Position numbers and translations under genes: made by a program
Part shown: positions 3,466 to 30,575 of the stretch, piece after piece
Position numbering within the stretch: the first letter of the stretch is position 1
Layout of the letters: each line of letters starts with the position of its first letter
The notes under the pieces: generated by a model
What the model saw: only the letters and a program-made list of their open reading frames with translations
The model's database searches: none
What the model was told of the DNA's origin: nothing
Assembly (NCBI RefSeq): GCF_000299365.1
Contig: NC_018655.1
Coordinates: forward strand, 660,001-692,000
Direction: 5' to 3'
Length of the DNA stretch: 32,000 nucleotides
Origin: Candidatus Nitrosopumilus koreensis AR1
GTDB lineage: Archaea; Thermoproteota; Nitrososphaeria; Nitrososphaerales; Nitrosopumilaceae

Positions 3466-3585
3466 ACGGAATGGGGGGATTCTATTTTTATTGATAAAGA
3501 GTAAAAAGGCAGTCCCCCCTCCTTACGTACGAAAACATGCGTTGTACTATAGCGAAACGACGGTGTGATTTGTTGGGATTTGTTT
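3466..3585 (+). repeat. Intergenic repeat family, copy G (hairpin subtype, loop flipped)
   Basis: GGGGGG(3473-78)...attgataaagagtaaaaaggca...CCCCCC(3514-19) forms a hairpin. Downstream blocks ttacgtacgaaaa and ggtgtgatttgttgg are colinear with copies E and F. Confidence 0.7.
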
Positions 3586-3687
3586 ATTTTAGAATTGTAT
3601 GGAATTTTAAAAGAAAACGAATTCGAATCATAGTGTAGAAAGATATTGAAAATAATTGTTATGCTATTGATCTAAAAGGCTTACTGA

Positions 3688-4164
3688 TCAGAAGTATGGA
3701 TCGAGGTATGTTTTTTTCGTATCTTTATCAATTACCAGTGCTTTTTTATTTTTAGGTATTGGTACAAAATGCCAATTCACAGATACTGTTTTCTCTCCCA
3801 CCAATCCCAATAATTTCCATAGTTTGTTTGATAATTGAATTCCACTTTTGTCTGTAGTTATATTTTTTAGATCTTTTCCACATTCGGCTTGGGGTCTCTG
3901 TTTCTCTCTCCAGTAGGCATCATCAAATTTATCATCCCATCCCCCGCCATTCCAAGGACCAATATGACCGATTGGCACTATTGCACTTGAAGGAAATGAC
4001 AAAGTAGTTAACTGAATCCATTTTCCTTTCATGTTTGCTGCTGGCAATCCTGCAAAAACACTCTCTGCCATACTGTAGCCGTATGCAGATTTTGATAGTT
4101 TTTTTGGAATTATTGATGCAAAAATATTAGCATTCAAATTATATCTCAGGTTTTTGATATTCAT
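3688..4164 (-). CDS. Hypothetical protein; possible RlpA-like double-psi beta-barrel fold (weak)
   Basis: 158-aa ORF with no competing frame. The pattern SAYGY...VPIGHIGPWNGGGWDD...RPQAECG...SGIQLSNKLWKLLGL loosely recalls DPBB/RlpA-like proteins. Fold call is low confidence. Confidence 0.5.
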   Translation of the reverse strand: MNIKNLRYNLNANIFASIIPKKLSKSAYGYSMAESVFAGLPAANMKGKWIQLTTLSFPSSAIVPIGHIGPWNGGGWDDKFDDAYWREKQRPQAECGKDLKNITTDKSGIQLSNKLWKLLGLVGEKTVSVNWHFVPIPKNKKALVIDKDTKKTYLDPYF

Positions 4165-4289
4165 TACACTATTAACATGCGTGCAAAAGATATTAGTGTT
4201 GATTAGAACGTGTAGGATGCAATGTCATGATTTTAACAACGTAGTTTTTGCGCGATTATATCTATAGACAAATACAATAACATCAAAAC

Positions 4290-4372
4290 ATTTGCTAAAT
4301 GTCGACATATTTGTACATTGTATTTACATAATCATCAGTTTCGCTTAATATGATACGGTTCACTATTACATC
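4290..4372 (+). promoter_or_regulatory. Conserved promoter/leader module, copy c4 (upstream of ferredoxin)
   Basis: atttgctaaatgtcgacatatttgtacattgtatttacataatcatcagtttcgcttaa followed by 24 nt (containing ttcactat) and then ATG 4373. About 75% identical to the copies at 16139 and 14340(-). Confidence 0.55.
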
Positions 4373-4909
4373 ATGCCAATAGCAGAAAACTTTCCAGAAG
4401 GTCTGAAACCAATTGGAAAAATAAAACATGCTGACGGTGAAAACTTTCATCATGTTTGGGGCCCTGGCAGATCAAATGCAGAAGCATTCAAAGATGACAA
4501 GGTAAAAGCTGCTTATGCAAAGAGAGATGAAAAACAGGTTCCATTGGGGATAAGTGGCACAATGGTTGCAGTTGACTGGGACTCTTGTGTTGCAGATGGT
4601 GCATGTATAGAGTCATGTCCTGTCCAAGTATTCCAGTGGTATAGGACTGAAAAAGACACTCCTGCAATAGATGCAATCAATGAAACCTTTGAAGGAACTG
4701 GCAGTTCTGAGAAAGATGAAAGAAAGGACTATACCGACAAGGCAGACCCAATTCGAGAACACGATTGTATATGGTGCATGGCATGCGTTTCTGTTTGTCC
4801 TCCACAGGCAATCAAAGTTGAGCAGGGCAATCTGGAGTTTCATGAAAAGGAAGCTGGAACTTTTGTAAAGATGGAATCAGGTTCTGCAAATCCACATGCG
4901 CATGCTTGA
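4373..4909 (+). CDS. zfx: Zinc-containing dicluster (3Fe-4S + 4Fe-4S) ferredoxin, Sulfolobus Zfx type
   Basis: CVADGACIESCP (CxxDxxCxxxCP) and CIWCMACVSVCP (CxxCxxCxxxCP). VFQWY and KADP blocks and a His-containing N-terminal extension match the Sulfolobus zinc ferredoxin. Confidence 0.9.
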   Translation: MPIAENFPEGLKPIGKIKHADGENFHHVWGPGRSNAEAFKDDKVKAAYAKRDEKQVPLGISGTMVAVDWDSCVADGACIESCPVQVFQWYRTEKDTPAIDAINETFEGTGSSEKDERKDYTDKADPIREHDCIWCMACVSVCPPQAIKVEQGNLEFHEKEAGTFVKMESGSANPHAHA

Positions 4910-5038
4910 TTTTATTCTAAATCTTCACTTAAACATAGATTCTCATCCATAACTATGATTCTAAGACTTCTTTTAGTTTAACATATTCTTCAGGAGAAAT
5001 TTTGCCTTTTGCCAATCTTTTCTTTAGGGTTACAAGAA

Positions 5039-5074
5039 GGGCTTTGCCTTTTTATCTGCAAAAATAGAAATTCC
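5039..5074 (+). repeat. Partial copy (K) of the hairpin module
   Basis: gggctttgccttttta is identical to the left arm of copy F (9078-9093). The rest is diverged. Confidence 0.35.
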
Positions 5075-5155
5075 ATAGAATTATGCGTAAAGTTCCGAGT
5101 GTATAGTGCTTAAGATTCTAAATATTACTTCAATTAGATATTGAATAATGCCTTT

Positions 5156-5548
5156 TTATTTTGATGAATGCCCATCAGAGAGAATTATGCATACAAACAT
5201 TCCTTTGCCTGATATTGCCTGAGCGCTGTGAGTTAGGCCTTTTGGGATGAATATGGTACAGGGAGATGTCACAGTGTATGTCTCATCTTCTAGATCTATT
5301 TTGTACTTTAGCTTAGAGTCTTCAGACAAGATCAAGTTAATCTCATCATTGTCATGTTTGTGAGGGATGCTGTATTCTGGTAGTTTTTTTTCAGCATCAA
5401 CAAAATGTACTGCAATATGCGTATCTGATTGCGGAATCATTTTTTTGCTTAGCATTGAGAGTCGTTTTATTGGTGCTTTTTTATGAAAGGGGACTTTATG
5501 TAATGGCTCATTTACTCCTTTTTTAATTAAATTCCGATACTTTCTCAC
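5156..5548 (-). CDS. Cupin domain protein
   Basis: 130 aa. Cupin motif 1-like PHKHDNDEINLIL and motif 2-like FIPKGLTHSAQ. Confidence 0.6.
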   Translation of the reverse strand: MRKYRNLIKKGVNEPLHKVPFHKKAPIKRLSMLSKKMIPQSDTHIAVHFVDAEKKLPEYSIPHKHDNDEINLILSEDSKLKYKIDLEDETYTVTSPCTIFIPKGLTHSAQAISGKGMFVCIILSDGHSSK

Positions 5549-5628
5549 AGTACTACATTGGATTTTCTATTAAATAACTAGACCTGTTTAGATGAATATT
5601 ATATGCTATTACTATACTACTAGTATTA

Positions 5629-6321
5629 TTGCAATCAGATAGAACCTCTGAATGGTTTGTTCCAAAGTTTGGTCCAAAAAACTTTCGCCGCAGTGTTGGA
5701 ATTTTGTTTTTACCATACACTGCAATCGTTACATGTTTTGCAGTACTAGGTGCAACCTCTGGCAGTTTAGATGTTGGACGAATTGTTGCAATTAGCATAA
5801 TCTATTTTCTGGCACTTGGAGTCAGTGCACATCTACTTGATGCAATAGGTGGAAAGACAAAGCCTTGGGGAGATCTTCCAAAGAGGAAATTATGGAGTAT
5901 CTCCATGATTTCATTAGGTGCTGCATTTTCAATTGGGCTGTACTTTGCATTCTTGGATTCACCCTTGCTTTTTCCAATAGGAATTGCAGAGGGATTCTTT
6001 TTGTTTGCATATAATCTAGAATGGTTTGGTGGAAAATTTCACAACAAGATTACAACCATAATTTCATGGGGAATCCTGCCCGTATTTGCAGGCTCTGCCA
6101 TCCAAACAAACTCAATCACGCTTGAGACAGTGGCAATATCAGGCATTACTGCATTAATCACATATGTGCTAATTAGAAACACCAGGCCCTACAAGATACT
6201 AAAGCAAAACAACGGAGACCAGCAAGAGATTAGACGCAGAGAACTATTTTTGAAGATACTGCCACTGGGAGTAATTATTGGAACAATTTTGTTTTTTATT
6301 GTAAAATATTATGTGATTTAA
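5629..6321 (+). CDS. Integral membrane protein (about 6-7 TM segments)
   Basis: 230 aa with a TTG start. Repeated hydrophobic stretches throughout. No catalytic motif recognised. Confidence 0.6.
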   Translation: MQSDRTSEWFVPKFGPKNFRRSVGILFLPYTAIVTCFAVLGATSGSLDVGRIVAISIIYFLALGVSAHLLDAIGGKTKPWGDLPKRKLWSISMISLGAAFSIGLYFAFLDSPLLFPIGIAEGFFLFAYNLEWFGGKFHNKITTIISWGILPVFAGSAIQTNSITLETVAISGITALITYVLIRNTRPYKILKQNNGDQQEIRRRELFLKILPLGVIIGTILFFIVKYYVI

Positions 6322-6325
6322 GATT

Positions 6326-7003
6326 TCAAATCATTTTTGCAAAAATAATTGATGATGTGTGCCAGGTCATATCATGTCTTGATACGATAAAGTTATTTTT
6401 CTCCAGAGTTTCTGTATAGTCATCAACCCATCTGCTTTCTCGGATTAGATTTGGCAGTTCTTTAAAGGCAAACTTCCAAGAGGGAACAAAGTTTCCTGCA
6501 AACAATAAAATCTCAAAGTAGGCATTCCACAAGTTTTGCAATAATCTGTTTTGTGGAAAAATAAAATCATGCAGTATTATGGTGCCCTTTGGATTCAGAT
6601 GTGAAATGCATTTTTGAATTAAGGTTTTGGGATCACAGTATTTTGGAATGTATGATGAACAGATGCAGTCAAACTTTTCTTTTAGGTCCAACTCTTCTGC
6701 ATCTTGATAAACAAATGAGATGTTTTCAAATCCTGTGGAGTTTTGTTTTGCGATTTGCAGATATGTCTGAGATATGTCTACCCCGGTTATTTTTGCGTGT
6801 GGAAATTTTTGGGCAATCATCCTAGTCAGGATTCCCGTACCACATGCAAGATCTAAAACAGAGTCAGCACTTGGAATATTTTGAATTATCTTGTCTTTCC
6901 AGTACTTGTCTTGTCCAAACGTTGCCCAATTTGCTATTTTATCATAGGTTTTTGCAGTGTCATTAAAAAAGCGCGGAACAAGATTTCTTGGATTTTGGTT
7001 CAC
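6326..7003 (-). CDS. Class I SAM-dependent methyltransferase (UbiE/COQ5-like)
   Basis: 225 aa. Motif I VLDLACGTGILT, with post-I and motif II spacing typical of the UbiE/MenG family. Confidence 0.85.
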   Translation of the reverse strand: MNQNPRNLVPRFFNDTAKTYDKIANWATFGQDKYWKDKIIQNIPSADSVLDLACGTGILTRMIAQKFPHAKITGVDISQTYLQIAKQNSTGFENISFVYQDAEELDLKEKFDCICSSYIPKYCDPKTLIQKCISHLNPKGTIILHDFIFPQNRLLQNLWNAYFEILLFAGNFVPSWKFAFKELPNLIRESRWVDDYTETLEKNNFIVSRHDMTWHTSSIIFAKMI

Positions 7004-7037
7004 TATTGGATTAACACTTCAAATAATTTAAAGAAAT

Positions 7038-7247
7038 TTAAGAAAACTCGTACATTCTTAGCATTATTTCAAAGACTACATAGTATGCAGCATAAAACGC
7101 CAAAAGAACCACTCCAATCAGTAGGCAATTTTTTGCCTTTGAAGGGTCATCTTTTCGTAAGATAAAGTAAGCAATCAGTGCACCAGGCATGCTAAAGAAT
7201 AGCGGTAGGACATACCAAAATAAACTGCGTTCTTTTCTCTCAGACAT
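7038..7247 (-). CDS. Small 2-TM membrane protein
   Basis: 69 aa with two hydrophobic helices (WYVLPLFFSMPGALIAYFIL, LLIGVVLLAFYAAYYVVF). Confidence 0.6.
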   Translation of the reverse strand: MSERKERSLFWYVLPLFFSMPGALIAYFILRKDDPSKAKNCLLIGVVLLAFYAAYYVVFEIMLRMYEFS

Positions 7248-7304
7248 GTCTTAAGAATATCTTTTGTAGCATTTAATCTAAAAATCAAAAATTAGTAATA
7301 GGTG

Positions 7305-7410
7305 AGCTTTGCCTTTTACTCTTTGTCGATAAAAAGGCAATCCCCCCTTTTAGGTTCAAGAATCTGCGGCCTACTAAAACAAGACGAAAGTATGATTTGT
7401 TGGAAAGGGC
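7305..7410 (+). repeat. Intergenic repeat family, copy E (hairpin subtype)
   Basis: gctttgccttttactctttgtcgataaaaaggcaatcccccc, then ggttcaagaatctgcgg, then gtatgatttgttgg. Confidence 0.7.
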
Positions 7411-7547
7411 TTATTTTCTAGAATCTTAGTGTTAAATCATGAAAGATTCTGAAAAACATCATTGCTATTCCATCCATATTATTATGTTCAACCACAATTA
7501 GATTTTGAGGGATATGAATTTGTGCATGGTTTTATATCAGAATTTGA

Positions 7548-8702
7548 CTATTTTGACTTTGTTTTTACTGATTTTTTGTTATCCGACTTTGAATTGTTTG
7601 TATTTTTTTCGTTATTTGATGGTCCAGTTCTATCTGGTTTGCCAGGATCGTCTGGCTTTCCTACTTTGATGTCTGGCTTTCCAAGAGTTTCTGGCATTCC
7701 CCTTGTGTATTCACTTGCATGAGGCGAATCTCCATCATCTGGCTGTATCTGTGTTTCTTCACTTTTTTCTACGATTGATTCTGAGTCTTCTAGTGGGGCT
7801 CCCAATGCTTCTTCAAGTGTATATCCTTTCATTTCTTTGAGAATATCATCTACAAGAACTTTGATTATTGGATCATCTAATAATGCTCCAAATCCGCCCT
7901 CGTTTCCTTCTTGCATAGCAGATATCTTTCTTAATTCTAACATTCTTTGCATTTTTTCTTTGAGTTTCACAAGTTTTTCTTTTAATTTTTCATCATGTAC
8001 CTGATTTAATGAACGCTCAATTGCAGGAATTACAAGATTCCATTCTTTTGACTTTGCAATTTCTTGTAGTGCTTCTTTGTGAAGGTCTTTGTCTAGTCTG
8101 TTTTGTCCTTGTTGCGCATTTCTTATTGCAATCTCATTAATCAGTTTCTGATATTTCTCTTCAGGTCCTTTTCTATCTAAATAATCTTGGATTTTCAACT
8201 TTTTGTTTTTAACTTCTTCTTGTTTTGATTCATTTATCTCAAAGTTCATTTTTTGCTTAGTTATTTTTGCTACTAGTTTTTTTTCTTGAATTAAAAGTCC
8301 AGACTCTCTTTCATGTTCTCGAATAGAATCAATATGGGTTTCTAGCGTTTTGATATATTCTTTTTTTAATGTATCAATATTTGTTTTGAATGGAAATAAT
8401 GAAATATCTTCCATTTTATTTAATTCTAATAGAGAATCCTTGATTTGCATAAATTGAAATACATTGCCTGATAAAGTTATTTCATTGATATTTTCTGGTA
8501 AATTCTGCAAATGAGTTATTTGTAATTCTATGTTTTGTATCTTTTTTCCAATTTTTTCATGTGATTCACCATATGTTTCAGGTATGGCAGCAATTCCTAT
8601 CAAAATTACTCCTAATGCACTCAATAAGAATAACTCTTTTTTATGTAAACAATGAGGGTCTGATTCTATCGAATTCACTTCAAATATGTTATTACATGTC
8701 AA
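7548..8702 (-). CDS. Membrane-anchored coiled-coil protein with Lys/Pro-rich tail
   Basis: 384 aa. N-terminal hydrophobic anchor LFLLSALGVILIGIAAIP, a long heptad-like E/K/L-rich body, and a KPD/K-rich C-terminus. The TTG start is uncertain. Confidence 0.6.
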   Translation of the reverse strand: MTCNNIFEVNSIESDPHCLHKKELFLLSALGVILIGIAAIPETYGESHEKIGKKIQNIELQITHLQNLPENINEITLSGNVFQFMQIKDSLLELNKMEDISLFPFKTNIDTLKKEYIKTLETHIDSIREHERESGLLIQEKKLVAKITKQKMNFEINESKQEEVKNKKLKIQDYLDRKGPEEKYQKLINEIAIRNAQQGQNRLDKDLHKEALQEIAKSKEWNLVIPAIERSLNQVHDEKLKEKLVKLKEKMQRMLELRKISAMQEGNEGGFGALLDDPIIKVLVDDILKEMKGYTLEEALGAPLEDSESIVEKSEETQIQPDDGDSPHASEYTRGMPETLGKPDIKVGKPDDPGKPDRTGPSNNEKNTNNSKSDNKKSVKTKSK

Positions 8703-8920
8703 GTAATTGGAGAGCCTCCATCATATGGGGCAGACCGTGAAAGATCAATTTGATCATCTGTAACTACTTTGATAGAAAAGTTGCTAAGTGTATTTGGAGC
8801 AGTTACTGCACTTGCTTCTGAAGACATTGAAAAAACATTAGCTATTGAAATAATAGATGATGCCAAAAATTTTGTTTGTAAGATGTTCCATATACTTTTA
8901 CAATTATAAATTTGAGTCAA
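8699..8920 (-). pseudogene. N-terminal remnant of a secreted fibronectin-type-III-like protein
   Basis: 73 aa. A signal-like segment (FLASSIISIANVFSMSSEASA) is followed by NFSIKVVTDDQIDLSRSAPYDGGSPIT, the first two strands of an FN3 domain (..W..P.ddGGspIt). It then hits a TGA and the sequence continues as unrelated coding. Confidence 0.45.
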
Positions 8921-9075
8921 CTTGTTTTAATTCGGAAAAATAGTAATTAAGAAAGGCTGACATGTTAGTTAGTATAGCATACATGTTTGTTAGCGTAATT
9001 TACAAATTTTGGAATATTGTATCTAGAGGGCTATTGACAACTATTATTTATAAAATAAAATTTTGCAATTAAGGA

Positions 9076-9180
9076 AGGGGGCTTTGCCTTTTTACTCTTT
9101 ATCAATAAAAGGCACTATTCTCTTTTTACGAAAAGTTAGCAATAGCCTAAATCATAATGGGTGTGCGGTTTGTTGGAAAA
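9076..9180 (+). repeat. Intergenic repeat family, copy F (hairpin subtype)
   Basis: gggggctttgcctttttactctttatcaataaaaggcactattc, then tttttacgaaaag, then gggtgtgcggtttgttgg. Ends about 33 nt before the TTG start at 9213. Confidence 0.7.
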
Positions 9181-9212
9181 TCGTTATAATGATAGTATGA
9201 ATTTGTGAAATA

Positions 9213-9524
9213 TTGGGTTCAAAAACAACAATTGGAATTAGTTTGGCAACTGTATTTTTTGGCGTAATTGCATTAATCTGGTTTACTGGATACAGTTCTG
9301 ACCATATTGAAAATGCAAATAGAAACTTGATGACAGCTCATGAAGAATTGAATAGAATTGTTGATGAGGCAATCATTCATTGTCAAACTGACGGTACTGG
9401 ATGTGATACAATAATGCCTCAGTGGTTAGAAGAATGCAAAAAACCTGAGATGGAAAAAATTGCATCTTGTCATGATGGCCGAATCGAGCAACTAGTTCAA
9501 CAACCCATTACCATGACAAAATAA
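9213..9524 (+). CDS. Small N-terminally anchored Cys-containing protein
   Basis: 103 aa with a TTG start, one TM segment (ISLATVFFGVIALIWF) and 4 Cys in the soluble part. Confidence 0.5.
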   Translation: MGSKTTIGISLATVFFGVIALIWFTGYSSDHIENANRNLMTAHEELNRIVDEAIIHCQTDGTGCDTIMPQWLEECKKPEMEKIASCHDGRIEQLVQQPITMTK

Positions 9525-10095: not shown

Positions 10096-10554
10096 ATGTC
10101 CATATACAAACATGATAAAAACATGGCAGTAATTAAGAAGCAAAATTCAAAGGTAAGAAAAGATAAAAATTCTAAAAATATTAAAAAAACACTAAAAACA
10201 AAAACCAACCCCAACACAAAGAAACTTACAAAACATGTTATCTGGATGGAGAAAAAAGGCAGGGTTAAAAAAAATAATGACTTGGATCTTAAAGAAAAAT
10301 TTAGGAAGGAATTAGAAAAAAAGCAATTTGAACCAAGCATGAAGATGTTAATTCGCATAACAGAATCCATAAAACAAAAAGGTTCTAGAAACAAGACAAC
10401 GCTATCGCGCGACACCAAGACAAACTATACAAGACTTACAAAACATGTTGTCTGGATGGAGAAAAAAGGCCTTGTGGAATCAGAAATAAAAAATCATAGT
10501 ATTGCTATTGCTTTAACTAGTAAAGGCAGATTCTTTGTAGATACAATTTTGTAA
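10096..10554 (+). CDS. Lys-rich winged-helix DNA-binding protein with internal partial duplication
   Basis: 152 aa. The C-terminal ~70 aa (MLIRITESIKQKGSRNKTTLSRDTKTNYTRLTKHVVWMEKKGLVESEIKNHSIAIALTSKGRFFVDTIL) looks like a wHTH domain. The recognition-helix segment LTKHVIWMEKKG is duplicated 70 codons upstream. Confidence 0.6.
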   Translation: MSIYKHDKNMAVIKKQNSKVRKDKNSKNIKKTLKTKTNPNTKKLTKHVIWMEKKGRVKKNNDLDLKEKFRKELEKKQFEPSMKMLIRITESIKQKGSRNKTTLSRDTKTNYTRLTKHVVWMEKKGLVESEIKNHSIAIALTSKGRFFVDTIL

Positions 10555-11194: not shown

Positions 11195-11415
11195 GACTAA
11201 ATTAATCAAGATCAAAGAATATTTGCACATCAAAGATGGAACCGTACTAATCTGTTTTAAGAATAATTTATACTCAATACTAAAAAATGAACTAATTCCA
11301 CAGTTTTAGAATATTGTTAGTGGGCTAGAATCTATGTTTAAGTGGAGATTTAGAATAAAATCAAGCATGTGCATTGTTGGAAATTAGTTATTAATGGATT
11401 ATTCAAATTCGATTT

Positions 11416-12534: not shown

Positions 12535-12655
12535 TCATTGATCCATGTTGAATTCAAATTGCTCCCAATAATGGTTCGGGCCTCTAAGGATTCACATTTT
12601 GTAGAATTGAACTGAAATACTAGACTCTTTGATTGCCTGATGATTAAATAGAATT
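12535..12655 (+). repeat. Intergenic repeat family, copy D
   Basis: gatccatgttgaattcaaattgctcccaataatggttcgggcctctaaggattcaca...agactctttgattgcctgatgatt. Ends about 17 nt before the pirin GTG. Confidence 0.6.
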
Positions 12656-12671
12656 ATTTTGTATAACAACT

Positions 12672-14248: not shown

Positions 14249-14340
14249 AATCTTATGTAGTGAAATACACAATTAAACAGAACTGATATTATTGTACATT
14301 AGATGTACAAAACCATCAGCATTTTCTAAATACATACTTG
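14249..14340 (-). promoter_or_regulatory. Conserved promoter/leader module, copy c3 (inverted orientation)
   Basis: The reverse complement reads gtatttagaaaatgctgatggttttgtacatctaatgtacaataatatcagttctgtttaa, followed by 24 nt (containing tttcacta) and then ATG 14248(-). Confidence 0.55.
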
Positions 14341-14355
14341 TTATTGTAGTGATGA

Positions 14356-14807: not shown

Positions 14808-14890
14808 GTGAGTATTTGTAGAATGCTGATGGTTTTGTATGTCTTGTTGACACAAACATACGTTTCTCTTAATAGCCTGTTTTATCCATT
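14808..14890 (+). promoter_or_regulatory. Conserved promoter/leader module, copy c1
   Basis: gtgagtatttgtagaatgctgatggttttgtatgtcttgttgacacaaacatacgtttctcttaa matches copy c2 at 59 of 65 positions. It is followed by 18 nt and then ATG 14891. Confidence 0.55.
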
Positions 14891-19590: not shown

Positions 19591-19690
19591 GCTTCCGTAT
19601 ATGCCTAATTTGGTTTTACCTACAAACCTATTGACGGCACGTTCAGTTCAATTGACATGTATTAAACCAAGATAATGATTGATTTGTGAC
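19591..19690 (+). repeat. Intergenic repeat family, degenerate copy H
   Basis: gcttccgtatatgcctaatttggtttta...cacgttcagttcaattgac...taatgattgatttg aligns with copies A and B. Starts 20 nt after the 19570 stop. Confidence 0.4.
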
Positions 19691-22345: not shown

Positions 22346-22513
22346 GATTTTCTAGTGTCCCTCATCTTAAAAAAGAATGCCAATAAAACCATTCATGATA
22401 ATTCAAGATGGATGTTTTGTCTTCTTTAATTCATTTATCTGGTATTCCAGATTTTTTTGAGTTATCTTGAGTGACTTTAAACGCTTAAGTTTGAATGACA
22501 TTAGATAAGTAAT

Positions 22514-22660
22514 ATGATAGATGTAAAAGATTTGAGAGTGTGCGTTGATTGTGGAACCGTATACAATGAAAAATTTTCAAGAGGAACGTGCCCAAACTGT
22601 CATACCAATAATTATGAACAGGTATCTGCAGATAGCGGCGTGGGAAATTTAGACAGATAA
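22514..22660 (+). CDS. Zinc-ribbon miniprotein (48 aa)
   Basis: MIDVKDLRVCVDCGTVYNEKFSRGTCPNCHTNNYEQ... Paralog of 23225..23353. Replaces the antisense track ORF 22485..22715. Confidence 0.55.
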   Translation: MIDVKDLRVCVDCGTVYNEKFSRGTCPNCHTNNYEQVSADSGVGNLDR

Positions 22661-23091
22661 ACAGCCTTTGAAAAGATCGAATGGATAAAAAACAGATACG
22701 AGAAAACTTGTTCATCTATCAAAGACTCTGAATGATATTCTACTGACATCTGAAATTGCCCCCAAAAACAAGTCAATACTGCAAAAGCTCTCCCTACTCT
22801 GCATCCTAATTAACCTCAAACAATATGAAACTCTATAAGCAATATTGGCGTAAAGTTAGTAACGTAGTGGTGTGAGTTTGCATATCTGCAAGGAAGGACT
22901 GAATTGACTACTCAGCTACGTGCTGTTGTATTATGATTGGAATTTTATGTCTTTATATGCCAGTAGTGACTAAGTGAATTATATCGGAAAATATTTTTGC
23001 AAAATTCAAAGTAAGAAAAGAAAAGACACCAAAGGACGTTAACGCATTCAAAGAATCTGAAGAAACGAAATTAGTGAGGATAGAAAAATAA

Positions 23092-23220: not shown

Positions 23221-23224
23221 TGCA

Positions 23225-25037: not shown

Positions 25038-25196
25038 ACAATTAGATTTTCAAGTAGAAATTGTGATATTATCATGTTTTCAAGTCGCACTAAAATAATT
25101 GGGCAGAGTGGGGCAATAATTAGAAAAACGTCATAATCTGTTCTTGTTGTTTAATTTCTATTAACTGTGACAAATGTGTAAGTAAAAACAACATTC

Positions 25197-25475
25197 ATGT
25201 CAGCGTGGCTTAATACACTATTTGCAATTATGTTAACAATGACAAAAACAAAACAAATTCCTAATAATCCAGACAGAGAGCCATTTCGTAAAATGCGTAA
25301 CGATCGAGAAATTGGAAATGTTTCTAACCTTCCAAAAGATGCAATTGAAGGTTGTAGAAAAGACATGCAAATCGGAACTCTGTTGGATAAATGGAATGTA
25401 AGAACTGTTGAGGAACTGAAAAAAAAATTCAGAAAACAAAACAGACTCAAAAAATTTAATCAAAGATTAGATTAA
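25197..25475 (+). CDS. Hypothetical basic protein (start 25197 or ATG 25230)
   Basis: The + frame is protein-like (PNNPDREPFRKMRNDREIGNVSNLPKDAIEGCRKDMQIGTLLDKWNVRTVEELKKKF). The two overlapping minus ORFs are Phe/Ser/Ile low-complexity. Confidence 0.5.
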   Translation: MSAWLNTLFAIMLTMTKTKQIPNNPDREPFRKMRNDREIGNVSNLPKDAIEGCRKDMQIGTLLDKWNVRTVEELKKKFRKQNRLKKFNQRLD

Positions 25476-25497
25476 CATATGGAATTTACGCTTATCT

Positions 25498-25635
25498 GCG
25501 TCCATTTCTATCCCCAATTTGGTAGTAGTCCACGTGAAGTTGAATCGAATCATTTTCTTTTCCCATAATCGGTTCAGGCCTTTGCGGATTTCATACAAAA
25601 CACCAGAAGGACTTTTCAATGACTGGGATTGACTT
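25498..25635 (+). repeat. Intergenic repeat family, copy A
   Basis: gcgtccatttctatccccaatttggtag is 28/28 identical to copy C. It is followed by gtccacgtgaagttgaatc, ggttcaggcctttgcgg and tgactgggattgac. Starts 22 nt after the 25475 stop. Confidence 0.75.
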
Positions 25636-25708
25636 TCATAGAGTATGGTGATATTGTATGTACATAATTGTCAGCGTCACTTAATATCTTATTTTATGAA
25701 ATAATGTT

Positions 25709-25804
25709 GTGACCTGCAAATATTGCGGAAAAGATTTTTACCATCGTGCTAGTACTTACTGTTCAACTGATTGCGCAATTAACGGACAAGATGCTGTCCT
25801 TTGA
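25709..25804 (+). CDS. FCS/MYM-like zinc-finger miniprotein (31 aa, GTG start), paralog of 15248..15337
   Basis: VTCKYCGKDFYHRASTYCSTDCAINGQDAVL. Confidence 0.45.
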   Translation: MTCKYCGKDFYHRASTYCSTDCAINGQDAVL

Positions 25805-25983
25805 ATAATTCCAACACCAGATCAAATCTAATTAACAGACAAAAAATTTTATGTATTTCTGTATTGTTTGTTTTCATATTAGGTATTCCTTCCATACCTA
25901 GTTCGTATGCTGATCATGCTAATGTTAATGTGAATATCGCAAAAGGATCTTCAGCATCAGGATGTGAGGAAAAAAATGAGTGA
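25801..25983 (+). pseudogene. N-terminal remnant of a secreted cupredoxin-like protein
   Basis: Signal/anchor ILCISVLFVFILGIPSIPSSYA, then DHANVNVNIAKGSSASGCEEKNE, then TGA where a Cys codon (TGY) would be expected. From memory, thaumarchaeal blue-copper proteins begin ..GSS.PGCE..N.C. Further stops follow immediately. Confidence 0.4.
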
Positions 25984-26137
25984 TAATTTTTGTAGAAGTA
26001 TATGCGGATACTATGATGCAAAGGCAGAATTTCGAAATTCACAAAGCAACATATTCAGAAAGTACTGCCCCACATGTGAACTAGAACTAGTTTCCAGATA
26101 TTCTAACTGTCCTTGTTGTCATCAATCATTTGATTAA
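25976..26137 (+). CDS. Cys-rich miniprotein (53 aa)
   Basis: MSDNFCRSICGYYDAKAEF...KYCPTCELELVSRYSNCPCCHQSFD (CxxxC, CxxC, CxCC). Confidence 0.5.
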   Translation: MSDNFCRSICGYYDAKAEFRNSQSNIFRKYCPTCELELVSRYSNCPCCHQSFD

Positions 26138-26439
26138 TTCTCAGATTCAAAATTCTAGAATTTTCAAAAATAGATACTTTCTAACTATTAGATGACAAAA
26201 TTTGGAACCGAAATAGAACTTCATAGATACGAATCCGGTCGAATCCAATCATCTATGATTCGTAAAATCTAGTTTAATTTTGGTTAATTAGGTTAACCCC
26301 GTTAATTTTCATAAACATAGTTGTTTGGCATCTCTGTAAATATTACATTGACAATTATGTATGTACCATAAACAAATCTGTATTTGAAACATACGCTAGT
26401 GTAAGCGCAGGTTAATACTGATTAGTATACACATTTACT

Positions 26440-28107
26440 ATGATTAAAAATAATGTTTTAAAATATTTTGCAATATCTGTATTACTTCTTTCATCTTTGA
26501 CTATGTTTCAAAACAATAGTAGTTTTGCAGCAACATCTCTGGATCTTGGAACATCTGCCAACTTTGGTGTCTTGGGTTCCTCAACGGTAACCAATGACCC
26601 AACATTAGGCACTGGTACAACCATCACAGGAGATCTTGGATTAAGCCCCGGTACAGCGATTACTGGCTTCTATGGTGCTAATGAAAATGGTGGTCCAGGA
26701 ATTGTAACAGGAACGACACACCAAGCTGATGCAACAGCAGCCAAAGCTCAAGCTGATGCGCTTGACGCATTTAACGAACTTGCAGCCAAGAGTTGTGACA
26801 CCTTTGCTCCTTGGCCTGGTGGAGGCGGAATAGAAATGAATGCATTAACACTTGTACCTGGAGTTTACTGTTCTACTTCATCACTTACTTTAGCAACAGG
26901 TGGAACACTTACTCTTGATGGTCCCGGAGTTTACATCTTCAAGGCTGCCAGTAAACTAACCACTTTTTCAGATTCTAATATAATCTTGACCAACGGCGCA
27001 ACAGCTGATAACGTATTTTGGTATGTAGGTACTTCTGCAACTCTTGCATCCCCAACCACAGGTTCTGGAAATACGTCTGTATTCTCAGGAACTGTAATTT
27101 CTTCAGCAGCAATCTCGCAAACCGGCGGTGACGCTGACACTCTCTTGGATATAGACGGCAGATTAATTTCACTAAACGCAGGAGTTACATTTGCATCTAC
27201 TGCGCATATCACAGTTCCAGCAGATATTACTCCACCAACTGACACCACTGACAATACAACAACTAAAACCACTGACAATACAACAACTACAACCAATGAC
27301 GATACAACAACTAAAACCCCTGACAATACAACAACTAAAACCCCTGACAATACAACAACTAAAACCCCTGACAATACAACAACTAAAACCACTGACAATA
27401 CAACAACTAAAACCACTGACAATACAACAACTAAAACCACTGACAATACAACAACTGATCCTTACAAATCTAAACAACCAGATCTTAAACTGGTATCACC
27501 TTACTTGCAAAGCAATACATTGAAGGATTTTCGTACAACACAACAAACAACTGAAACCATCACATCTTCCAGCGGAAGTTCTGGCTCTGCTGTAGGTTCT
27601 ACAACATTAGATGAAGAGTATGTTTTACCTAAGCCTGGAACTACTCCTGACTCATTTGCATATGGATTCAAAAAAGCATTTGAAGGGTTAGACTTGGCAT
27701 TTACATTTAATCAAAACGATAAAGTTGCAAAACATCTGAAATTTGCAGAACTACGACTGAGTGAAACAAATGCAGTAGTTCAAAAAGGAATGCCTGAACT
27801 AGTTAATGGTCTAACAAATGACTATGAAAAACAAGTATCTGATGCAAACAAAATTGCAGACTCTGCATCAAAAGCTGCAGACAAGGCATCTTTAACTGAA
27901 GATATAATGTCTGCATCATCCAACCATGTAGAAGTTCTAACTGAACTCAAAGATACACTTCCAGAACAAGCACAATTAAGAATCCAAGTGATAATTGATA
28001 ATTCTAAAAAAGACATTGGTATTGCAATGAAAGAACTCTCAAACTATGCTAATGCTATGGAAAAATCAAAAGAAATGAAACAAACAGCTGAAGATCGCAA
28101 ACCATAA
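26440..28107 (+). CDS. Secreted DUF3494 (ice-binding-like) domain protein with Thr-rich repeat linker and DUF5667-like C-terminal helical domain
   Basis: 555 aa with a signal peptide. LGTSANFGVLGSSTVTNDPTLGTGTTITGDLGLSPGTAITGF is the canonical DUF3494 N-terminus. TDNTTTKT/PDNTTTKT occurs x9. The C-terminal PDSFAYGFKKAFEGLDLAFTFNQNDKVAKHLKFAELRLSE resembles DUF5667. Confidence 0.85.
   Translation: MIKNNVLKYFAISVLLLSSLTMFQNNSSFAATSLDLGTSANFGVLGSSTVTNDPTLGTGTTITGDLGLSPGTAITGFYGANENGGPGIVTGTTHQADATAAKAQADALDAFNELAAKSCDTFAPWPGGGGIEMNALTLVPGVYCSTSSLTLATGGTLTLDGPGVYIFKAASKLTTFSDSNIILTNGATADNVFWYVGTSATLASPTTGSGNTSVFSGTVISSAAISQTGGDADTLLDIDGRLISLNAGVTFASTAHITVPADITPPTDTTDNTTTKTTDNTTTTTNDDTTTKTPDNTTTKTPDNTTTKTPDNTTTKTTDNTTTKTTDNTTTKTTDNTTTDPYKSKQPDLKLVSPYLQSNTLKDFRTTQQTTETITSSSGSSGSAVGSTTLDEEYVLPKPGTTPDSFAYGFKKAFEGLDLAFTFNQNDKVAKHLKFAELRLSETNAVVQKGMPELVNGLTNDYEKQVSDANKIADSASKAADKASLTEDIMSASSNHVEVLTELKDTLPEQAQLRIQVIIDNSKKDIGIAMKELSNYANAMEKSKEMKQTAEDRKP
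27247..27456. repeat. 24-bp tandem repeat, about 9 units (coding, Thr-rich linker)
   Basis: The unit actgacaatacaacaactaaaacc has a/c variation at the first base. Read directly from the sequence. Confidence 0.95.
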
Positions 28108-28142
28108 TCTAATTTTTAAAATTAGACTTTTCATGCATACTT

Positions 28143-28273
28143 GCATCCACTTTTAACCCAATAATGGTGGCAGTCCCCGTGGAGTTGAATCAAACAAATT
28201 CTTTTCCCAAGAAAGGTTCAAGCCTCTAAGGATTCGTACATTGGATTAGGACTCTTTATGACTGATTGATTTG
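28143..28273 (+). repeat. Intergenic repeat family, copy B
   Basis: gcatccacttttaacccaataatggtggcagtccccgtggagttgaatc...ggttcaagcctctaaggattcgtaca...ggactctttatgactgattgatttg. Starts 35 nt after the 28107 stop and ends 12 nt before ATG 28286. Confidence 0.75.
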
Positions 28274-28285
28274 AAGAAATAGATA

Positions 28286-29071
28286 ATGAAAACCATTTTC
28301 TTGATAATTATTGTAGGGCTTATCATTTTATCATCTGTTATTTTTGTTGCAATTTGGAATAGTATCCCTAAAGAATGTGATGATAAATGCAAACATGAAC
28401 GGAGAGCAATAGAAGCCGGCAAAATAGTTACTGGCTCATATGAATTAGAAAAGCCATTGTGTTTGGGAGGTAGGGGCATGATATTAAATGAAGATTGTGA
28501 GATAATTGGGAAATATGATGTCTCGACAGGAATGCCAATAGTTGAAAACAAAGAACAGTATTCAATTGAAATAACTGGATTGAATAAGATTTATCGTATA
28601 GGGGAACAATATGATTTCTCATATGTCATAACAGGATATGGATATTCATGCGGTAGTAAAGACGTCACTTTTCCTGATCAAAATGGAGAACTTGTGACAA
28701 TTAGTTCAAGTGGATTATGTGCGGCAGATGTGCCTATGAAGAATTTTGTCTTTGATATTCAAAAAGAGAGAGGTACAACATACGGTCATGTTGGATTAAA
28801 AAATCCTGGAACCTATAATGTCACTGTTACTTTTGATAGACCAAGTCGGGATTCTCCAACAACTGCCATCAAAGAATTCCGTGTACCTCCACCAAATTCT
28901 TGGTATAACAATCAACTCAGAGATGCTGATCTTCAAACCGTTAAAGACAGTTGTGTAAATGACTCTCCAAAAGAAAGAATGACAAATGCATTAAGATATA
29001 CAAATGAAACTCATGTTTTTTTGAATCTAGGGTGTGAGTGGAAAAAAATTGGAAAGTTTATGGGCGAATAG
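28286..29071 (+). CDS. N-terminally membrane-anchored Cys-rich extracellular protein (operon gene 1)
   Basis: 261 aa with TM segment IFLIIIVGLIILSSVIFVAIW. The C-terminal NETHVFLNLGCEW motif is shared with gene 3. Confidence 0.7.
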   Translation: MKTIFLIIIVGLIILSSVIFVAIWNSIPKECDDKCKHERRAIEAGKIVTGSYELEKPLCLGGRGMILNEDCEIIGKYDVSTGMPIVENKEQYSIEITGLNKIYRIGEQYDFSYVITGYGYSCGSKDVTFPDQNGELVTISSSGLCAADVPMKNFVFDIQKERGTTYGHVGLKNPGTYNVTVTFDRPSRDSPTTAIKEFRVPPPNSWYNNQLRDADLQTVKDSCVNDSPKERMTNALRYTNETHVFLNLGCEWKKIGKFMGE

Positions 29072-29074
29072 AAA

Positions 29075-29740
29075 ATGAATACGAATCTTCTTTTGGCATT
29101 ATCTGTGGTAGTGGTTGGAATAATCCTAATTTCGATAAACTATGAATCAATTTCAAATTTCTACACATATTCTGTGCCTCTAAAAGACTATACAGTATCA
29201 AAGTACTCTGATATTTCAAAAACCTTCCAAGGCATGCTTGATGATGATTCTGAATGTTTTACAACGTTAAATGGAAACCTGTTTTGTTATCTTAACCCAG
29301 TCAGATTCAATGATGATGGCTCTTCGGCATCTTTTGTAAAAGGTGAAAATGGAATAGAAGGAGAGATTCATTTTGATCCTGTTGATGTTGGTGCAACGTA
29401 TTTTCTAATGCTTGATATGACTCTGGTTTCCGATAACAAGGCAATGATTACGTTTGCAGACAAGGATTACAGAATCGGCAACAGTCAGGAAACATTCTAT
29501 GAGGTAGATGACAAGTTTGAGTTTTCTGCAACTGTTGAGAAATTTGATACGTTTATCTCGCATTGTAGCAACTATGAAGGGACAAAAATAACCATAGTGC
29601 AATACCTTGGAATCAGAGAGATTAACGGGAATGATTATTTTCTGACATGGCACACATCTGCAGACTCGGAGCAAGGGATTGCATGTGATTACCCTCAAAT
29701 TATTCAACACAGTCTTGATTATAATTTTAGGGAGTTATAG
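29075..29740 (+). CDS. N-terminally membrane-anchored extracellular protein (operon gene 2)
   Basis: 221 aa with TM segment LLLALSVVVVGIILISI. Starts 3 nt after the gene 1 stop. Confidence 0.7.
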   Translation: MNTNLLLALSVVVVGIILISINYESISNFYTYSVPLKDYTVSKYSDISKTFQGMLDDDSECFTTLNGNLFCYLNPVRFNDDGSSASFVKGENGIEGEIHFDPVDVGATYFLMLDMTLVSDNKAMITFADKDYRIGNSQETFYEVDDKFEFSATVEKFDTFISHCSNYEGTKITIVQYLGIREINGNDYFLTWHTSADSEQGIACDYPQIIQHSLDYNFREL

Positions 29741-29743
29741 AAA

Positions 29744-30496
29744 ATGAAAACTAGAAACAAAATATTACTTGGTGTAGGTATCGTTATTGCAATAATTGTA
29801 TTACTCTCTTCATTAATGGCATATTTTAACAAAAATGGAACGATTCTTGAATCCGATTACAATAATGATCCTAGTAGAGTATTAGCTCATTGTGCCCAAC
29901 AAAAATATGGTGAAGAAAATGACTGGAAAACTCCTGATGGAAAGAATTTTGCTGTGACCTCAATTGGATTATTTGCCATGAATGAAACTCATTATATTGA
30001 CAACAATCTTTGCACTTGGATAGAAAGACCTTCTGGATTAAACACTATGTTGTCTGGAGACGAATTAAAATTCTACAAGCAAAAACTAGCAAAGGATAAA
30101 GATGAATCAAAATCTTGTCCTGATGGACAAAATTACAACGAAATCCTGTTCAAATGTGTGGTTTCTTGTGAAGATGATCTAGTTTACAATGGTTATACTG
30201 ATTCATGTACTACTGAATTTGAATTAAAGTATCATGGATTCTGTGATGATGAGTTTACATATGATCCGTTATCTCATATCTGTTATTCTGATGATGGTAC
30301 TTTGCAGACTCCTCTAAAGGATCCGCCAAGAACTGCTCCTCCAGAACCTGAATGTTCAATTCAATGCTTAGTTTATGATCCTGTTTGCGGAGTAGATGGA
30401 ATTACTTATGCTTGTGGGATAGAAGATGCTGCATGTCATGGAGTTAAAGTCAAACATGATGGAGAATGTTCAGATTCAAAATTAGGCACAGAATAA
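29744..30496 (+). CDS. N-terminally membrane-anchored Cys-rich protein with C-terminal Kazal-type inhibitor domain (operon gene 3)
   Basis: 250 aa with TM segment ILLGVGIVIAIIVLLSSLMAYF. The C-terminus CSIQCLVYDPVCGVDGITYACGIEDAACHGVKVKHDGEC fits the Kazal pattern (C..PVCG.DG.TY.N.C....C......G.C), about nt 30351-30472. Confidence 0.75.
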   Translation: MKTRNKILLGVGIVIAIIVLLSSLMAYFNKNGTILESDYNNDPSRVLAHCAQQKYGEENDWKTPDGKNFAVTSIGLFAMNETHYIDNNLCTWIERPSGLNTMLSGDELKFYKQKLAKDKDESKSCPDGQNYNEILFKCVVSCEDDLVYNGYTDSCTTEFELKYHGFCDDEFTYDPLSHICYSDDGTLQTPLKDPPRTAPPEPECSIQCLVYDPVCGVDGITYACGIEDAACHGVKVKHDGECSDSKLGTE

Positions 30497-30513
30497 GTCT
30501 AGTTGTTTAATTT

Positions 30514-30575
30514 GCGTCCATTTCTATCCCCAATTTGGTAGTTAAGTCCCCGTGGGGTTGAATCTCAAATTACTT
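30514..30575 (+). repeat. Intergenic repeat family, copy C (5' half only)
   Basis: gcgtccatttctatccccaatttggtagttaagtccccgtggggttgaatctc. Starts 17 nt after the 30496 stop. The 3' half of the family consensus is absent. Confidence 0.7.

Follow-up and report, generated by a model that had tools for sequence, protein, structure and literature searches.

Casposons are transposons thought to be ancestral to CRISPR (clustered regularly interspaced short palindromic repeats). Among the thaumarchaeal elements of casposon family 1, NitAR1-C1 of Candidatus Nitrosopumilus koreensis AR1 has been catalogued at genome positions 655308-663492 with the target-site duplication (TSD) TTTATTGATAAAGAGTAAAAA and a terminal inverted repeat (TIR) of ~68 nt beginning AGTAAAAATAGAATCCCCCCATTCCG, and NitNF5-C1 with the TIR TAAAAAGGCAGAGCCCCCCGTTTACGAATAAAATTATGACGGT, listed as TAAAAAGGCAGAGCCCCCCGTTTACG..., and the TSD TGCCCTTTTACTCTTTATCAATAAAAA (PMC6563490, supplementary table). 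The true TSD of NitAR1-C1 was defined experimentally as the 13-bp ATTGATAAAGAGT; its casposase needs TTT at the leader end, AAA at the spacer start, A1, A11, T13 and an ATAA ruler, and it integrates TIR-less DNA of up to ~4 kb in vitro (PMC8464041). In the literature that we searched, tandem casposon family 1 elements were reported only for N. adriaticus NF5, and casposon solo-TIRs were described only for Methanosarcina mazei. We analysed 32,000 nt of the AR1 genome (NC_018655.1, positions 660,001 to 692,000; hereafter the window, ~34% GC), which begins inside NitAR1-C1 and in which an earlier note had described one co-oriented family of at least nine intergenic repeats, lettered A to H and K. 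On the reading that we consider probable, four of them, G, K, E and F, are casposon-end junctions standing in a row downstream of the EF-2 gene, and A, B, C and D form a separate sequence-conserved family for which a role as a 3′-end signal is suggested.

All-against-all blastn and nhmmer comparisons of the copies, together with a repeat search of the window, found repeats at most of the places named in the earlier note, with similarity far above chance within each of two groups, but the single family broke up: neither program detected significant similarity between A, B, C and D on the one side and G, E, F and K on the other, and H is a member of neither group, its best matches to the other copies being 10-15 nt long (E ~0.3 or worse), without any match to the hidden Markov models (HMMs). 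We refer to A, B and C (alpha type) plus D (beta type) as repeat family 1 and to G, K, E and F as repeat family 2, alpha being the core unit of repeat family 1 and beta a divergent second unit; casposon family 1 is a separate label. The 3′ block that was said to join all copies proved to have chance frequency as a stand-alone motif when compared with shuffled sequence, with three matches to TGATTTGTTGG at no more than one mismatch against 1.8 expected, and six to TGAYTGATTGATTTG at no more than three mismatches against 8.5 expected, and was rejected as a bridge between the two repeat families. A relationship of repeat family 1 to casposon TIRs was also rejected, no significant alignment being obtained. 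The uniform orientation claimed for the copies is retained for A, B, C and D, but not for G with respect to E and F, which are co-linear with it only over a ~95-nt right arm, the 13-nt hairpin loop being flipped. The original description conflates two independent repeat systems and is worth keeping in this corrected form, with H dropped.

Copy G is the published right boundary of NitAR1-C1. The 9.3 kb upstream of the window (L007; L-numbers denote comparison loci or contigs, and a window position equals the L007 position minus 9327) encode MqnA, SIS, EF-2, a 166-aa open reading frame (ORF) and Cas1, and the casposon continues into the window with genes for a protein-primed PolB (pPolB; 674-2458, Pfam DNA_pol_B_2, 6.8e-26) and a Schlafen/AlbA_2 protein (2475-3419, Pfam SLFN_AlbA_2, 1.1e-20), the order thus being EF-2, Cas1, pPolB, AlbA_2. 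The published TSD, TIR and coordinates agree with the window, the latter placing its position 1 near genome position 660001. The two ends of NitAR1-C1, each ~112 nt long with the TSD excluded, match at 91% over 99 nt (blastn, E=4e-34), and arms of 97 nt that are 87% complementary (L007 4622-4718 versus 12736-12832, the latter corresponding to window 3409-3505) run through the TSD. A second TSD copy lies at the 3′ end of EF-2 (L007 4625), and the direct repeat spans the EF-2 stop region. On the left side of G is the NitAR1-C1 TIR, ending ...GGGGGGATTCTATTTTT; it is followed by the TSD (3490-3502) and then by AAAAAGGCAGTCCCCCC.... NitAR1-C1 is an active-looking casposon, integrated by a Cas1-type casposase at the EF-2 3′ end, and the statement that no transposase or integrase accompanies any copy is wrong for G: the casposon of which G forms the right end has its Cas1 integrase encoded ~6.5 kb upstream of G, outside the window.

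The DNA to the right of this TSD is a casposon end in its own right, and G, K, E and F represent four junctions in a row, spaced 1.5-2.3 kb apart, with a common layout: a short right-end TIR remnant (...TGCCTTTTT), a 13-nt TSD sequence, and a ~100-nt left end reading AAAAAGGCA..CCCCCC ... TGATTTGTTGG. Each 13-mer is flanked by two mutually inverted repeats, so each junction is a hairpin-forming palindrome, which explains why the loop may be found in either orientation. G and E are similar over 75 nt at 75% on the same strand (E=4e-8), or, for the flank of G, over 95-96 nt at 73% (E=3e-10 to 7e-11); G and F share 41 nt at 90% on opposite strands (E=2e-10 to 5e-12), covering the TSD of G and its flank, and E and F share 35 nt at 89%. 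Set in its TTT/AAA frame, the 13-bp TSD is exact in G and in F and preserved at 11 of 13 positions in E (ATCGACAAAGAGT, retaining A1, A11 and T13), while K has just ATCTGC (6 nt) between T5 and A5 in place of a 13-mer. The loop of E is flanked by AGCTTTGCCTTTT on the left and AAAAAGGCAATCCCCCC on the right, and that of F by GGGGGCTTTGCCTTTTT and AAAAGGCACTATTCTC. The 13-mer of F is the reverse complement of the TSD at all 13 positions, so that the minus strand, where it occupies 9094-9106, reads TTTT-ATTGATAAAGAGT-AAAAA, in agreement with the published determinants of a casposase target; judged by these determinants, F would be a complete target.

Both E and F fold as DNA hairpins of 8-9 bp with the 13-mer as the loop (E, -7.0 kcal/mol, z=-2.3; F, z=-3.2). 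The hairpin module of the earlier note is a TIR-TSD-TIR structure, and its 3′ block is a subterminal casposon motif. The NitNF5-C1 TIR is matched at 28 of 38 positions by the flank of G, 31 of 42 by the right side of E, 17 of 18 by the left side of F, 15 of 16 by K, and 25 of 28 by the end in L029; the end in L015 resembles F over 44 nt at 82%. When true casposon ends (the left and right ends of NitAR1-C1 and one located at the border of contig L052) are aligned with G, E, F and the ends in L015, L029 and L036, all share the layout AAAAA-(GGCA or TAGA)-N-C-rich hexamer, ~60 nt, TRTGATTTGTTGG. The terminus AAAAGGCA occurs nine times in the window against 1.1 expected, always between 3504 and 10254, and is absent from the ~16 kb of flanks searched (9.3 kb upstream and 7 kb downstream). 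Copy K is the weakest of the four junctions: it lacks a hairpin, its similarity to the subterminal region of the C1 left end has z=5.5, its match to F is by itself marginal (E=6e-4), and it is supported only by its position within the AAAAGGCA cluster.

Domain scans of the window proteins found no Cas1 or PolB in the segments between junctions (3503-5057, 5059-7317 and 7331-9093), these proteins being encoded only upstream of G; the segments code instead for a ferredoxin, a methyltransferase, a UbiA-like protein and a strain-restricted protein. These segments are relics or non-autonomous derivatives, not casposons. The suggestion in the earlier note that the repeats are remnants of serial site-specific integration was essentially right for G, K, E and F, as casposon TIR/TSD junctions at an EF-2 hotspot, even though the note did not identify the system. 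The features of both repeat families are collected in the table.

Features of the window discussed in the text, with window coordinates
Feature	Position	Strand	Description
Right part of casposon NitAR1-C1	674-3419	+	context of copy G
Right TIR of NitAR1-C1	3409-3489	-	ends ...GGGGGGATTCTATTTTT
TSD ATTGATAAAGAGT	3490-3502	+	copies the last EF-2 codons and the T of the stop codon; exact match to the experimental TSD
Copy G right arm	3503-3600	+	~100-nt NitNF5-C1-type casposon end, AAAAAGGCAGTCCCCCC...GTGTGATTTGTTGG
Copy K	5039-5165	+	degenerate junction; short right-end remnant GGGCTTTGCCTTTTT, ATCTGC, decayed NitAR1-C1-type left end AAAAATAGAAATTCC...TAGATATTGAATAAT
Copy E	7305-7425	+	hairpin junction: TTGCCTTTT, inverted TSD-like loop ACTCTTTGTCGAT, AAAAGGCAA, then ~95-nt casposon end
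NKOR_03955	7548-8678	-	main content of the 1.77-kb E-F segment; strain-restricted
Copy F	9070-9200	+	hairpin junction: GGGGGCTTTGCCTTTTT, perfect inverted TSD ACTCTTTATCAAT, AAAAGGCA, then ~95-nt casposon end
Copy D	12554-12658	+	beta-type unit alone (TCCCAATAATGGTTCGGGCCTCTAAGGATTC) and shared 3′ module; the pirin gene follows closely
H	19591-19690		member of neither repeat family
Copy A	25480-25640	+	alpha core 25493-25549; beta-type unit and shared 3′ module 25550-25640
Copy B	28126-28285	+	alpha core 28138-28193 and beta-type unit 28194-28275
Copy C	30497-30577	+	alpha core only, 30509-30567

This row of elements may have arisen as casposase integrated repeatedly at the EF-2 target or beside it, and the older ones would have lost cas1 and polB or never possessed them; K, E, F and the DNA adjoining G would then be older casposon-like ends, of the NitNF5-C1 and NitAR1-C1 TIR types. 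Decay and rearrangement would have followed, with loop flips or a 6.3-kb inversion scrambling the orientations, and a flip of the loop is plausible because the flanks of each 13-mer are mutually inverted repeats. The locus itself is a hypervariable hotspot, as can be seen from the gene content of four relatives with 92-95% identical EF-2: the upstream MqnA-SIS-EF-2 synteny is kept in two of them (L039 and L040), and downstream of EF-2 all four differ completely, with a TPR protein and an M48 peptidase, Usp proteins, or several insertion sequence (IS) elements. Exact-protein look-ups place the genes of the window (NKOR_03920 to NKOR_03975 and beyond) in AR1 and in the near-identical strains SJ and AR, and NKOR_03955 matched only itself among 5.8 billion proteins.

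Several observations weigh against serial integration as the origin of the row. The right-end remnants are short (13-24 nt), K is degenerate, and the TSD loops of E and F are inverted with respect to G, which needs an extra event, be it a loop flip or the 6.3-kb inversion. Moreover, the ferredoxin (4373-4909) and the 158-aa gene of the first segment have orthologues in other Nitrosopumilaceae, hence not every inter-junction segment is obviously foreign; in L052, both orthologues are a few kb or less away from a casposon end, which in turn adjoins a piece of the EF-2 3′ end.

There is an alternative that we regard as unlikely, in which E, F and K are host intergenic hairpin elements, similar to terminators or repetitive extragenic palindromic (REP) sequences, that served as a casposon target, and the flank of G is native DNA downstream of EF-2. 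The occurrence of the hairpin and its flank in other species away from an intact EF-2 (L015, L029, L036, L052), the L052 neighbourhood of the ferredoxin and 158-aa orthologues, and the native EF-2 flank in L039, which starts with the TIR-like AAAAATAGAAATC, would all fit a host element. On the other hand, the same ~100-nt architecture is found at bona fide casposon ends, including both ends of NitAR1-C1, the published NitNF5-C1 TIR and the end in L052; the copies not located at EF-2 carry EF-2 3′ coding fragments (VNEFIDNQ*), pointing to an origin at the integration site; units of the E/F/K type were not found in 128 kb of other Nitrosopumilaceae DNA; and the copies in the window are strongly clustered beside the casposon. 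Integration of casposon ends remains our preferred explanation for repeat family 2.

The fragments just mentioned consist of 14-27 nt of the EF-2 3′ end, which, together with the 13-mer, adjoin casposon ends in L015 (2228-2333), L029 (914-975), L036 (6927-7030) and L052 (60-215), where they form mini-frames ending ...VNEFIDNQ* or ...VNEFIDCQ* with no intact EF-2 alongside. The EF-2 C-terminus of relatives, ...GVNEFIDKE*, explains these mini-frames, and the relics suggest displaced integration sites or rearrangements that broke at the EF-2 target. We also rejected the possibility that genuine EF-2-like ORFs terminate in E and F, since these contain just the last 5-7 codons, with stop codons upstream. 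Bracketing K, E and F is a 73-nt inverted repeat of 84% identity, whose arms lie 6.3 kb apart (4896-4968 on the plus strand and 11302-11374 on the minus strand); the left arm comprises the last ferredoxin codons and the ~60 nt that follow them, the right arm duplicates it in inverted orientation, and the pair could mediate or record an inversion. A 57-nt direct repeat (10204-10260 versus 10414-10470, 82%) inside the 152-aa gene NKOR_03975, coding for an ArnR1-like winged helix-turn-helix protein (UniRef), indicates an internal domain duplication, and one of its copies holds AAAAGGCA by coincidence.

Repeat family 1 is widespread in Nitrosopumilaceae and is conserved in sequence, not in structure. 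In the window, A and C are the closest pair (33 nt at 97% plus 20 nt at 90%, or 51 nt at 90%; E=1e-14), followed by A and B (93 nt at 74%, E=2e-11) and by B and D (38 nt at 84%, E=5.6e-6). A core HMM built from metagenome-derived copies recovered A, B and C with nhmmer (E=7.5e-16, 5.7e-14 and 2.7e-17, respectively); the alpha core HMM did not match D, and a beta HMM matched A with E=2.4e-17, A being a member of its training set. A scan with a degenerate 5′-module pattern located the family in 30 thaumarchaeal metagenome contigs, and a scan of a genome collection with the AGTCC core variant matched one other Nitrosopumilus genome (L003), a yield that is explained by most copies reading AATCC. 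The aligned alpha core spans ~58-62 nt, aTCTGCGTCCATTTtTATCCCCAAaatGGTAGgTGAATCCCCGTGGAGTTGAAcCT, with some of its invariant positions imposed by the search pattern and many others conserved too. The beta unit, ATCCCCAAGAAAGGTTCAAGCCTCTAAGGATTCA, makes up the second halves of A and B and has relatives in L035, L032, L038, L018, L010 and L012, while the L003 copy is intermediate between alpha and beta. Subfamilies share 40-60 nt beyond the core, and their outer flanks are unrelated. Additional alpha or beta copies (E<1e-3) follow the orientation of the first copy in all eight contigs that contain them (L010, L035, L032, L021, L014, L038, L018 and L012); a weak alpha match on the opposite strand was seen in L016 (E=0.009). 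No copy was found near EF-2 in relatives (88 kb searched) or near uvrB in four species (40 kb), nor on IMG/VR contigs of viruses and mobile genetic elements (MGEs), where a single match to the beta pattern is attributable to chance. This family is apparently undescribed and may be a new kind of element.

No common fold could be recovered. RNAalifold applied to 32 copies yielded -0.03 kcal/mol with seven weak pairs and no compensatory changes, and single-sequence RNA and DNA folds gave z-scores from ~-1.7 (the L051 copy) to +0.65, none of them significant against shuffles. A hairpin with three compensatory pairs, obtained when only A and B were aligned, was lost with 32 sequences and shuffling controls, and Rfam returned no match in the whole window at gathering thresholds and nothing relevant at E <=10 in 25400-30700. 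The idea of a structured small RNA, which the earlier note had entertained for the copies in general, finds no support for A, B, C and D in these tests. A tRNA or tRNA-derived att site was likewise discarded, as ARAGORN was negative, leaving a T-arm-like resemblance over 12-17 nt. The core at 25527-25546, 28172-28191 and 30545-30564 shares AATCCCCGTGG, a 12-nt identity, with the 3′ end of Nitrosopumilus tRNA-Val(TAC), which is the att site of NitNF5-E1 (PMC6563490), and L003 3181-3200 reads GGTTCGAGTCCCCGTGG, also T-arm-like; a tRNA-derived origin of the core is possible in terms of sequence, but statistically unsupported, neither resemblance being significant.

The placement of A, B, C and D directly after plus-strand stop codons, with a single polarity, was described correctly, and it extends to the 30 metagenomic loci. 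In 26 of 31 copies, the element has the same orientation as the nearest upstream ORF of at least 100 aa (two-sided binomial p ~2e-4, our own estimate rather than the output of a program), and in 19 of these 26 the gap between stop codon and element does not exceed 75 nt, a typical value, read from tables rather than computed, being ~20-30 nt. Downstream genes may be on either strand, and several copies lie between convergent genes. The element is placed after the last genes of operons, as in the case of C, which begins 12 nt past the stop codon of the three-gene operon 28286-30496, while B follows a 555-aa ice-binding-like gene and ends 10-12 nt before the ATG of that same operon. Upstream genes are diverse, coding for fn3/HYR, RTX and DUF642 surface proteins, PAS histidine kinases, DUF488, NDH-2 and unknown proteins, and most copies contain a T5 tract. 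Our tentative interpretation is that repeat family 1 is a signal, in DNA or RNA, which a protein recognises at the 3′ ends of transcripts and which may act in termination, 3′-end formation or stabilisation; in A, B and D, the extensions would then include the promoter of the next gene.

There are also data that do not fit such a signal well. Twelve of 32 copies have an interrupted T-tract (TTTCT), and the upstream gene has the opposite orientation in 5 of 31. The element does not occur in ~128 kb of DNA from other Nitrosopumilaceae or at the orthologous site upstream of uvrB in four relatives, and hence is not a general terminator. In the one informative case, homology with a close relative starts ~10 nt past the element, which fits a junction or insertion as well: in L003 and L051, the element is located between an RTX-repeat gene and uvrB, and the 95%-identical L048 lacks both the RTX-repeat gene and the element. 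L051, a Nitrosopumilus metagenome-assembled genome, contains an IS-rich island (466-9268) in place of the PNPOx, luciferase-like and Fe-ADH genes that are conserved upstream of uvrB in relatives; the island includes three IS copies of ~875 bp (DUF4096 + DDE_Tnp_1), other DDE transposases and fragments of a type I restriction-modification S subunit.

These data could also be accommodated if repeat family 1 were a DNA recombination or junction site marking the 3′ boundary of mobile accessory modules, in the manner of integrons or island att sites, with gene and element moving together and co-oriented arrays building up in flexible islands. We consider this, the main rival reading, unlikely. Clustering of co-oriented copies (3-4 in the window and 2-3 each in L010, L035, L032, L021 and L014) would be expected of it, as would the absence from ~128 kb of DNA and from the uvrB-upstream site of the four relatives, and the comparison of L003/L051 with L048 shows the element closing a 660-bp gene-plus-element unit in an IS-rich island. 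Many upstream genes code for secreted or surface proteins or sensor kinases, and 4 of 30 loci also hold casposon-related sequence. The integron core-site pattern is GTTRRRY, and the invariant 3′ end of the element, GTTGAAY, fits it. Yet no recombinase gene was seen beside the copies among the scanned window proteins or in the listed Pfam annotation of the loci, a non-exhaustive survey; no inverted-repeat or hairpin architecture was found; upstream genes include core-like enzymes such as NDH-2 and DUF488; viral and MGE contigs have no matches; and the boundary case is just one.

Strain pairs were rejected as evidence of recombination, the difference between L018 and L023 being an unrelated insertion with an HNH gene; the pair L011/L026 gave no informative difference. 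The insertion in L023 (1346-2401) is 1.06 kb long, codes for a Cys-rich HNH-like protein and is missing from the otherwise 99.9% identical L018; inverted repeats of ~18 nt (AACCTTTCCATTATTGAC) flank it, as does a ~27-38-nt direct repeat, and it has the appearance of a small mobile element with no relation to the two repeat families. As to the casposon-related sequences, they lie within 0.1-5 kb in four of the 30 core-selected contigs, L015, L029, L036 and L037 (the last with a Cas1 N-terminal fragment at 39-233). This overlap is far above expectation for elements present once or twice per genome, and both systems may share flexible islands. A bolder proposal, to which we assign little credence, is that the alpha/beta element is the recombination or junction site of a previously unknown gene-cassette system of Nitrosopumilaceae, dependent on sequence and not on a hairpin, which would stack co-oriented modules in flexible islands, the casposon-fed EF-2 region included.

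Also improbable is that repeat family 1 represents a multi-copy small-RNA gene or promoter cassette, with TTTTTAT as the TATA box, GAATCCCCGTGGAGTTGAA as the 5′ tag and the subfamily-specific extensions as variable 3′ parts of the transcript. The 40-60 nt shared within subfamilies after the core, amid unrelated flanks, and the T-rich box 12-20 nt upstream of the core would agree with a transcript, and base pairing between the core end and the unit that follows (GTTGAATC/GGTTCAA) is possible in A and B, one of the pairs being compensatory. Nevertheless, no conserved structure was found across the 32 copies, the flanks of the putative TATA box are GC-rich, unlike archaeal TFB recognition element (BRE)/TATA promoters as generally known, the downstream genes are not consistent, Rfam contains nothing similar, and the tight spacing to the upstream stop codon would be left unexplained. 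Finally, an ordinary family of miniature inverted-repeat transposable elements (MITEs), or chance similarity in AT-rich intergenic DNA, both of which the earlier note had named as possible refutations, is scarcely tenable as an explanation of everything and is already refuted for every copy except H: the genome is ~34% GC, and similarity is indeed no better than chance for H, for the cross-family 3′ block and for several short matches, but E-values within families range from 1e-14 to 1e-6, repeat family 1 is conserved in 30 independent contigs, has no TIRs, no duplication in its flanks and a non-random orientation, and repeat family 2 matches published casposon TIR and TSD sequences.

A few other repeats in the window belong to neither repeat family or lie in genes. 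A 12-nt unit, TGACTGACACCA, is repeated in tandem ~10 times in 14360-14527, inside the minus-strand ORF 14273-14521, and a 24-nt unit ~10 times in 27185-27504, inside the ice-binding-like/DUF5667 gene 26440-28107, both presumably coding. A 65-nt intergenic direct repeat (14808-14872 versus 16139-16203, 91%, with a weaker copy at 4284-4348) is found near small minus-strand genes. The last 65 nt of the Cdc48 gene (19186-19250, plus strand) are 83% complementary to 22415-22479 (minus strand), at the 3′ end region of the small minus-strand ORF 22485-22715, and the corresponding peptides are similar (a 23-residue stretch versus LKSLKITQKNLEYQINELKKTK), as would be expected of a paralogous C-terminal module or of a gene fragment.

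Comparison of repeat family 1 with described elements brings up integron attC sites, REP sequences with their bacterial interspersed mosaic elements (BIMEs), and archaeal terminators. Like attC sites, the element lies downstream of a gene and is co-oriented with it, occurs in co-oriented arrays, contains GTTGAAY and provides one case of a boundary of variable DNA. However, the R″/L″-L′/R′ inverted-repeat hairpin was not found in it, no IntI-type integrase or attI was seen nearby (domain scans of the window and the listed Pfam annotation of loci, non-exhaustive), and attC sites conserve structure, not sequence, whereas repeat family 1 conserves its primary sequence over ~58 nt. With REPs and BIMEs it shares its short length, multiple copies, extragenic location, often at operon 3′ ends, and a mosaic of alpha, beta and extension modules; REPs, though, are bacterial imperfect palindromes linked to RAYT transposases, while the element is archaeal and non-palindromic, with no RAYT-like gene seen. 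The position just past stop codons, the co-orientation with the upstream gene and the T5 tract in most copies are reminiscent of archaeal oligo-T terminators, which are simple T-runs, in contrast to the ~58 conserved nucleotides of the element, including C- and G-rich blocks, its interruption of the T-run in ~40% of copies and its patchy distribution. By the features that define them, repeat family 1 is not an attC site, a MITE, a REP or any Rfam RNA, and in its position it is terminator- or 3′-UTR (untranslated region)-like, though much better conserved and much patchier in distribution than the archaeal terminators known. This near-invariant motif of ~58 nt at operon 3′ ends in a very abundant marine archaeal lineage is not in Rfam, and it points to an unknown sequence-specific factor, whether it functions as a 3′-end signal or as a recombination site.

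Repeat family 2 is a new instance or variant of known phenomena, namely the TIR and TSD of casposon family 1, tandem integration and solo-TIRs. Within casposon family 1 (NitAR1-C1, NitNF5-C1/C2), G corresponds to the annotated right end, with the same TSD, ATTGATAAAGAGT, and the same TIR; K, E and F share the NitNF5-C1-type start AAAAAGGCA..CCCCCC, the TTT-13-mer-AAA frame and the subterminal TGATTTGTTGG; and tandem placement at EF-2 is known for NitNF5-C1/C2. They differ from that family in that the K, E and F segments have no cas1, polB or conserved casposon genes, the right ends are reduced to 13-24 nt, and the 13-mers of E and F are inverted. The catalogue of integrative mobile genetic elements lists just NitAR1-C1 at this locus, the K, E and F junctions not being annotated there. 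The solo-TIRs of the euryarchaeon M. mazei (casposon families 2 and 4) are likewise what is left of casposon ends where the integration locus has no casposon genes; they have been considered as possible steps on the way to CRISPR repeats, and consist of single TIRs at intergenic or tRNA sites (PMC4779613); here, by contrast, the ends are of casposon family 1, four in a row, each with a TSD-like 13-mer and a short opposite end. Four such junctions in a row, with an additional perfect target, in a host studied biochemically appear to be undescribed. The same seems true of the finding that what was assumed to be the "spacer" flank of the NitAR1-C1 target is a casposon end in its own right, by which the annotation of that side of the target is corrected.

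N. koreensis AR1 hosts the sole casposon family 1 casposase characterised biochemically. Three more TIR-TSD-TIR junctions beside NitAR1-C1, one of them with a perfect target, offer a natural set of substrates that bears on repeated leader-proximal integration, on integration of non-casposon DNA, on loop inversion, and on the scenario leading from solo-TIRs to CRISPR repeats, which in the literature searched rests only on the solo-TIRs of Methanosarcina. The row differs from a CRISPR array in that its "spacers" are gene-carrying segments of 1.5-2.3 kb and its repeats are degenerate, two of them inverted, all of this being known here from sequence alone. It resembles such an array in having a Cas1-family integrase, a leader-proximal target that is duplicated with each integration, and repeated 13-mers split by inserted DNA, a parallel that has been published for the NitAR1-C1 casposase (PMC8464041). 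On a second, more modest proposal, the G-K-E-F row could be a natural counterpart of the intermediate postulated for the origin of CRISPR, a proto-array formed by repeated casposase integration at a leader-proximal target.

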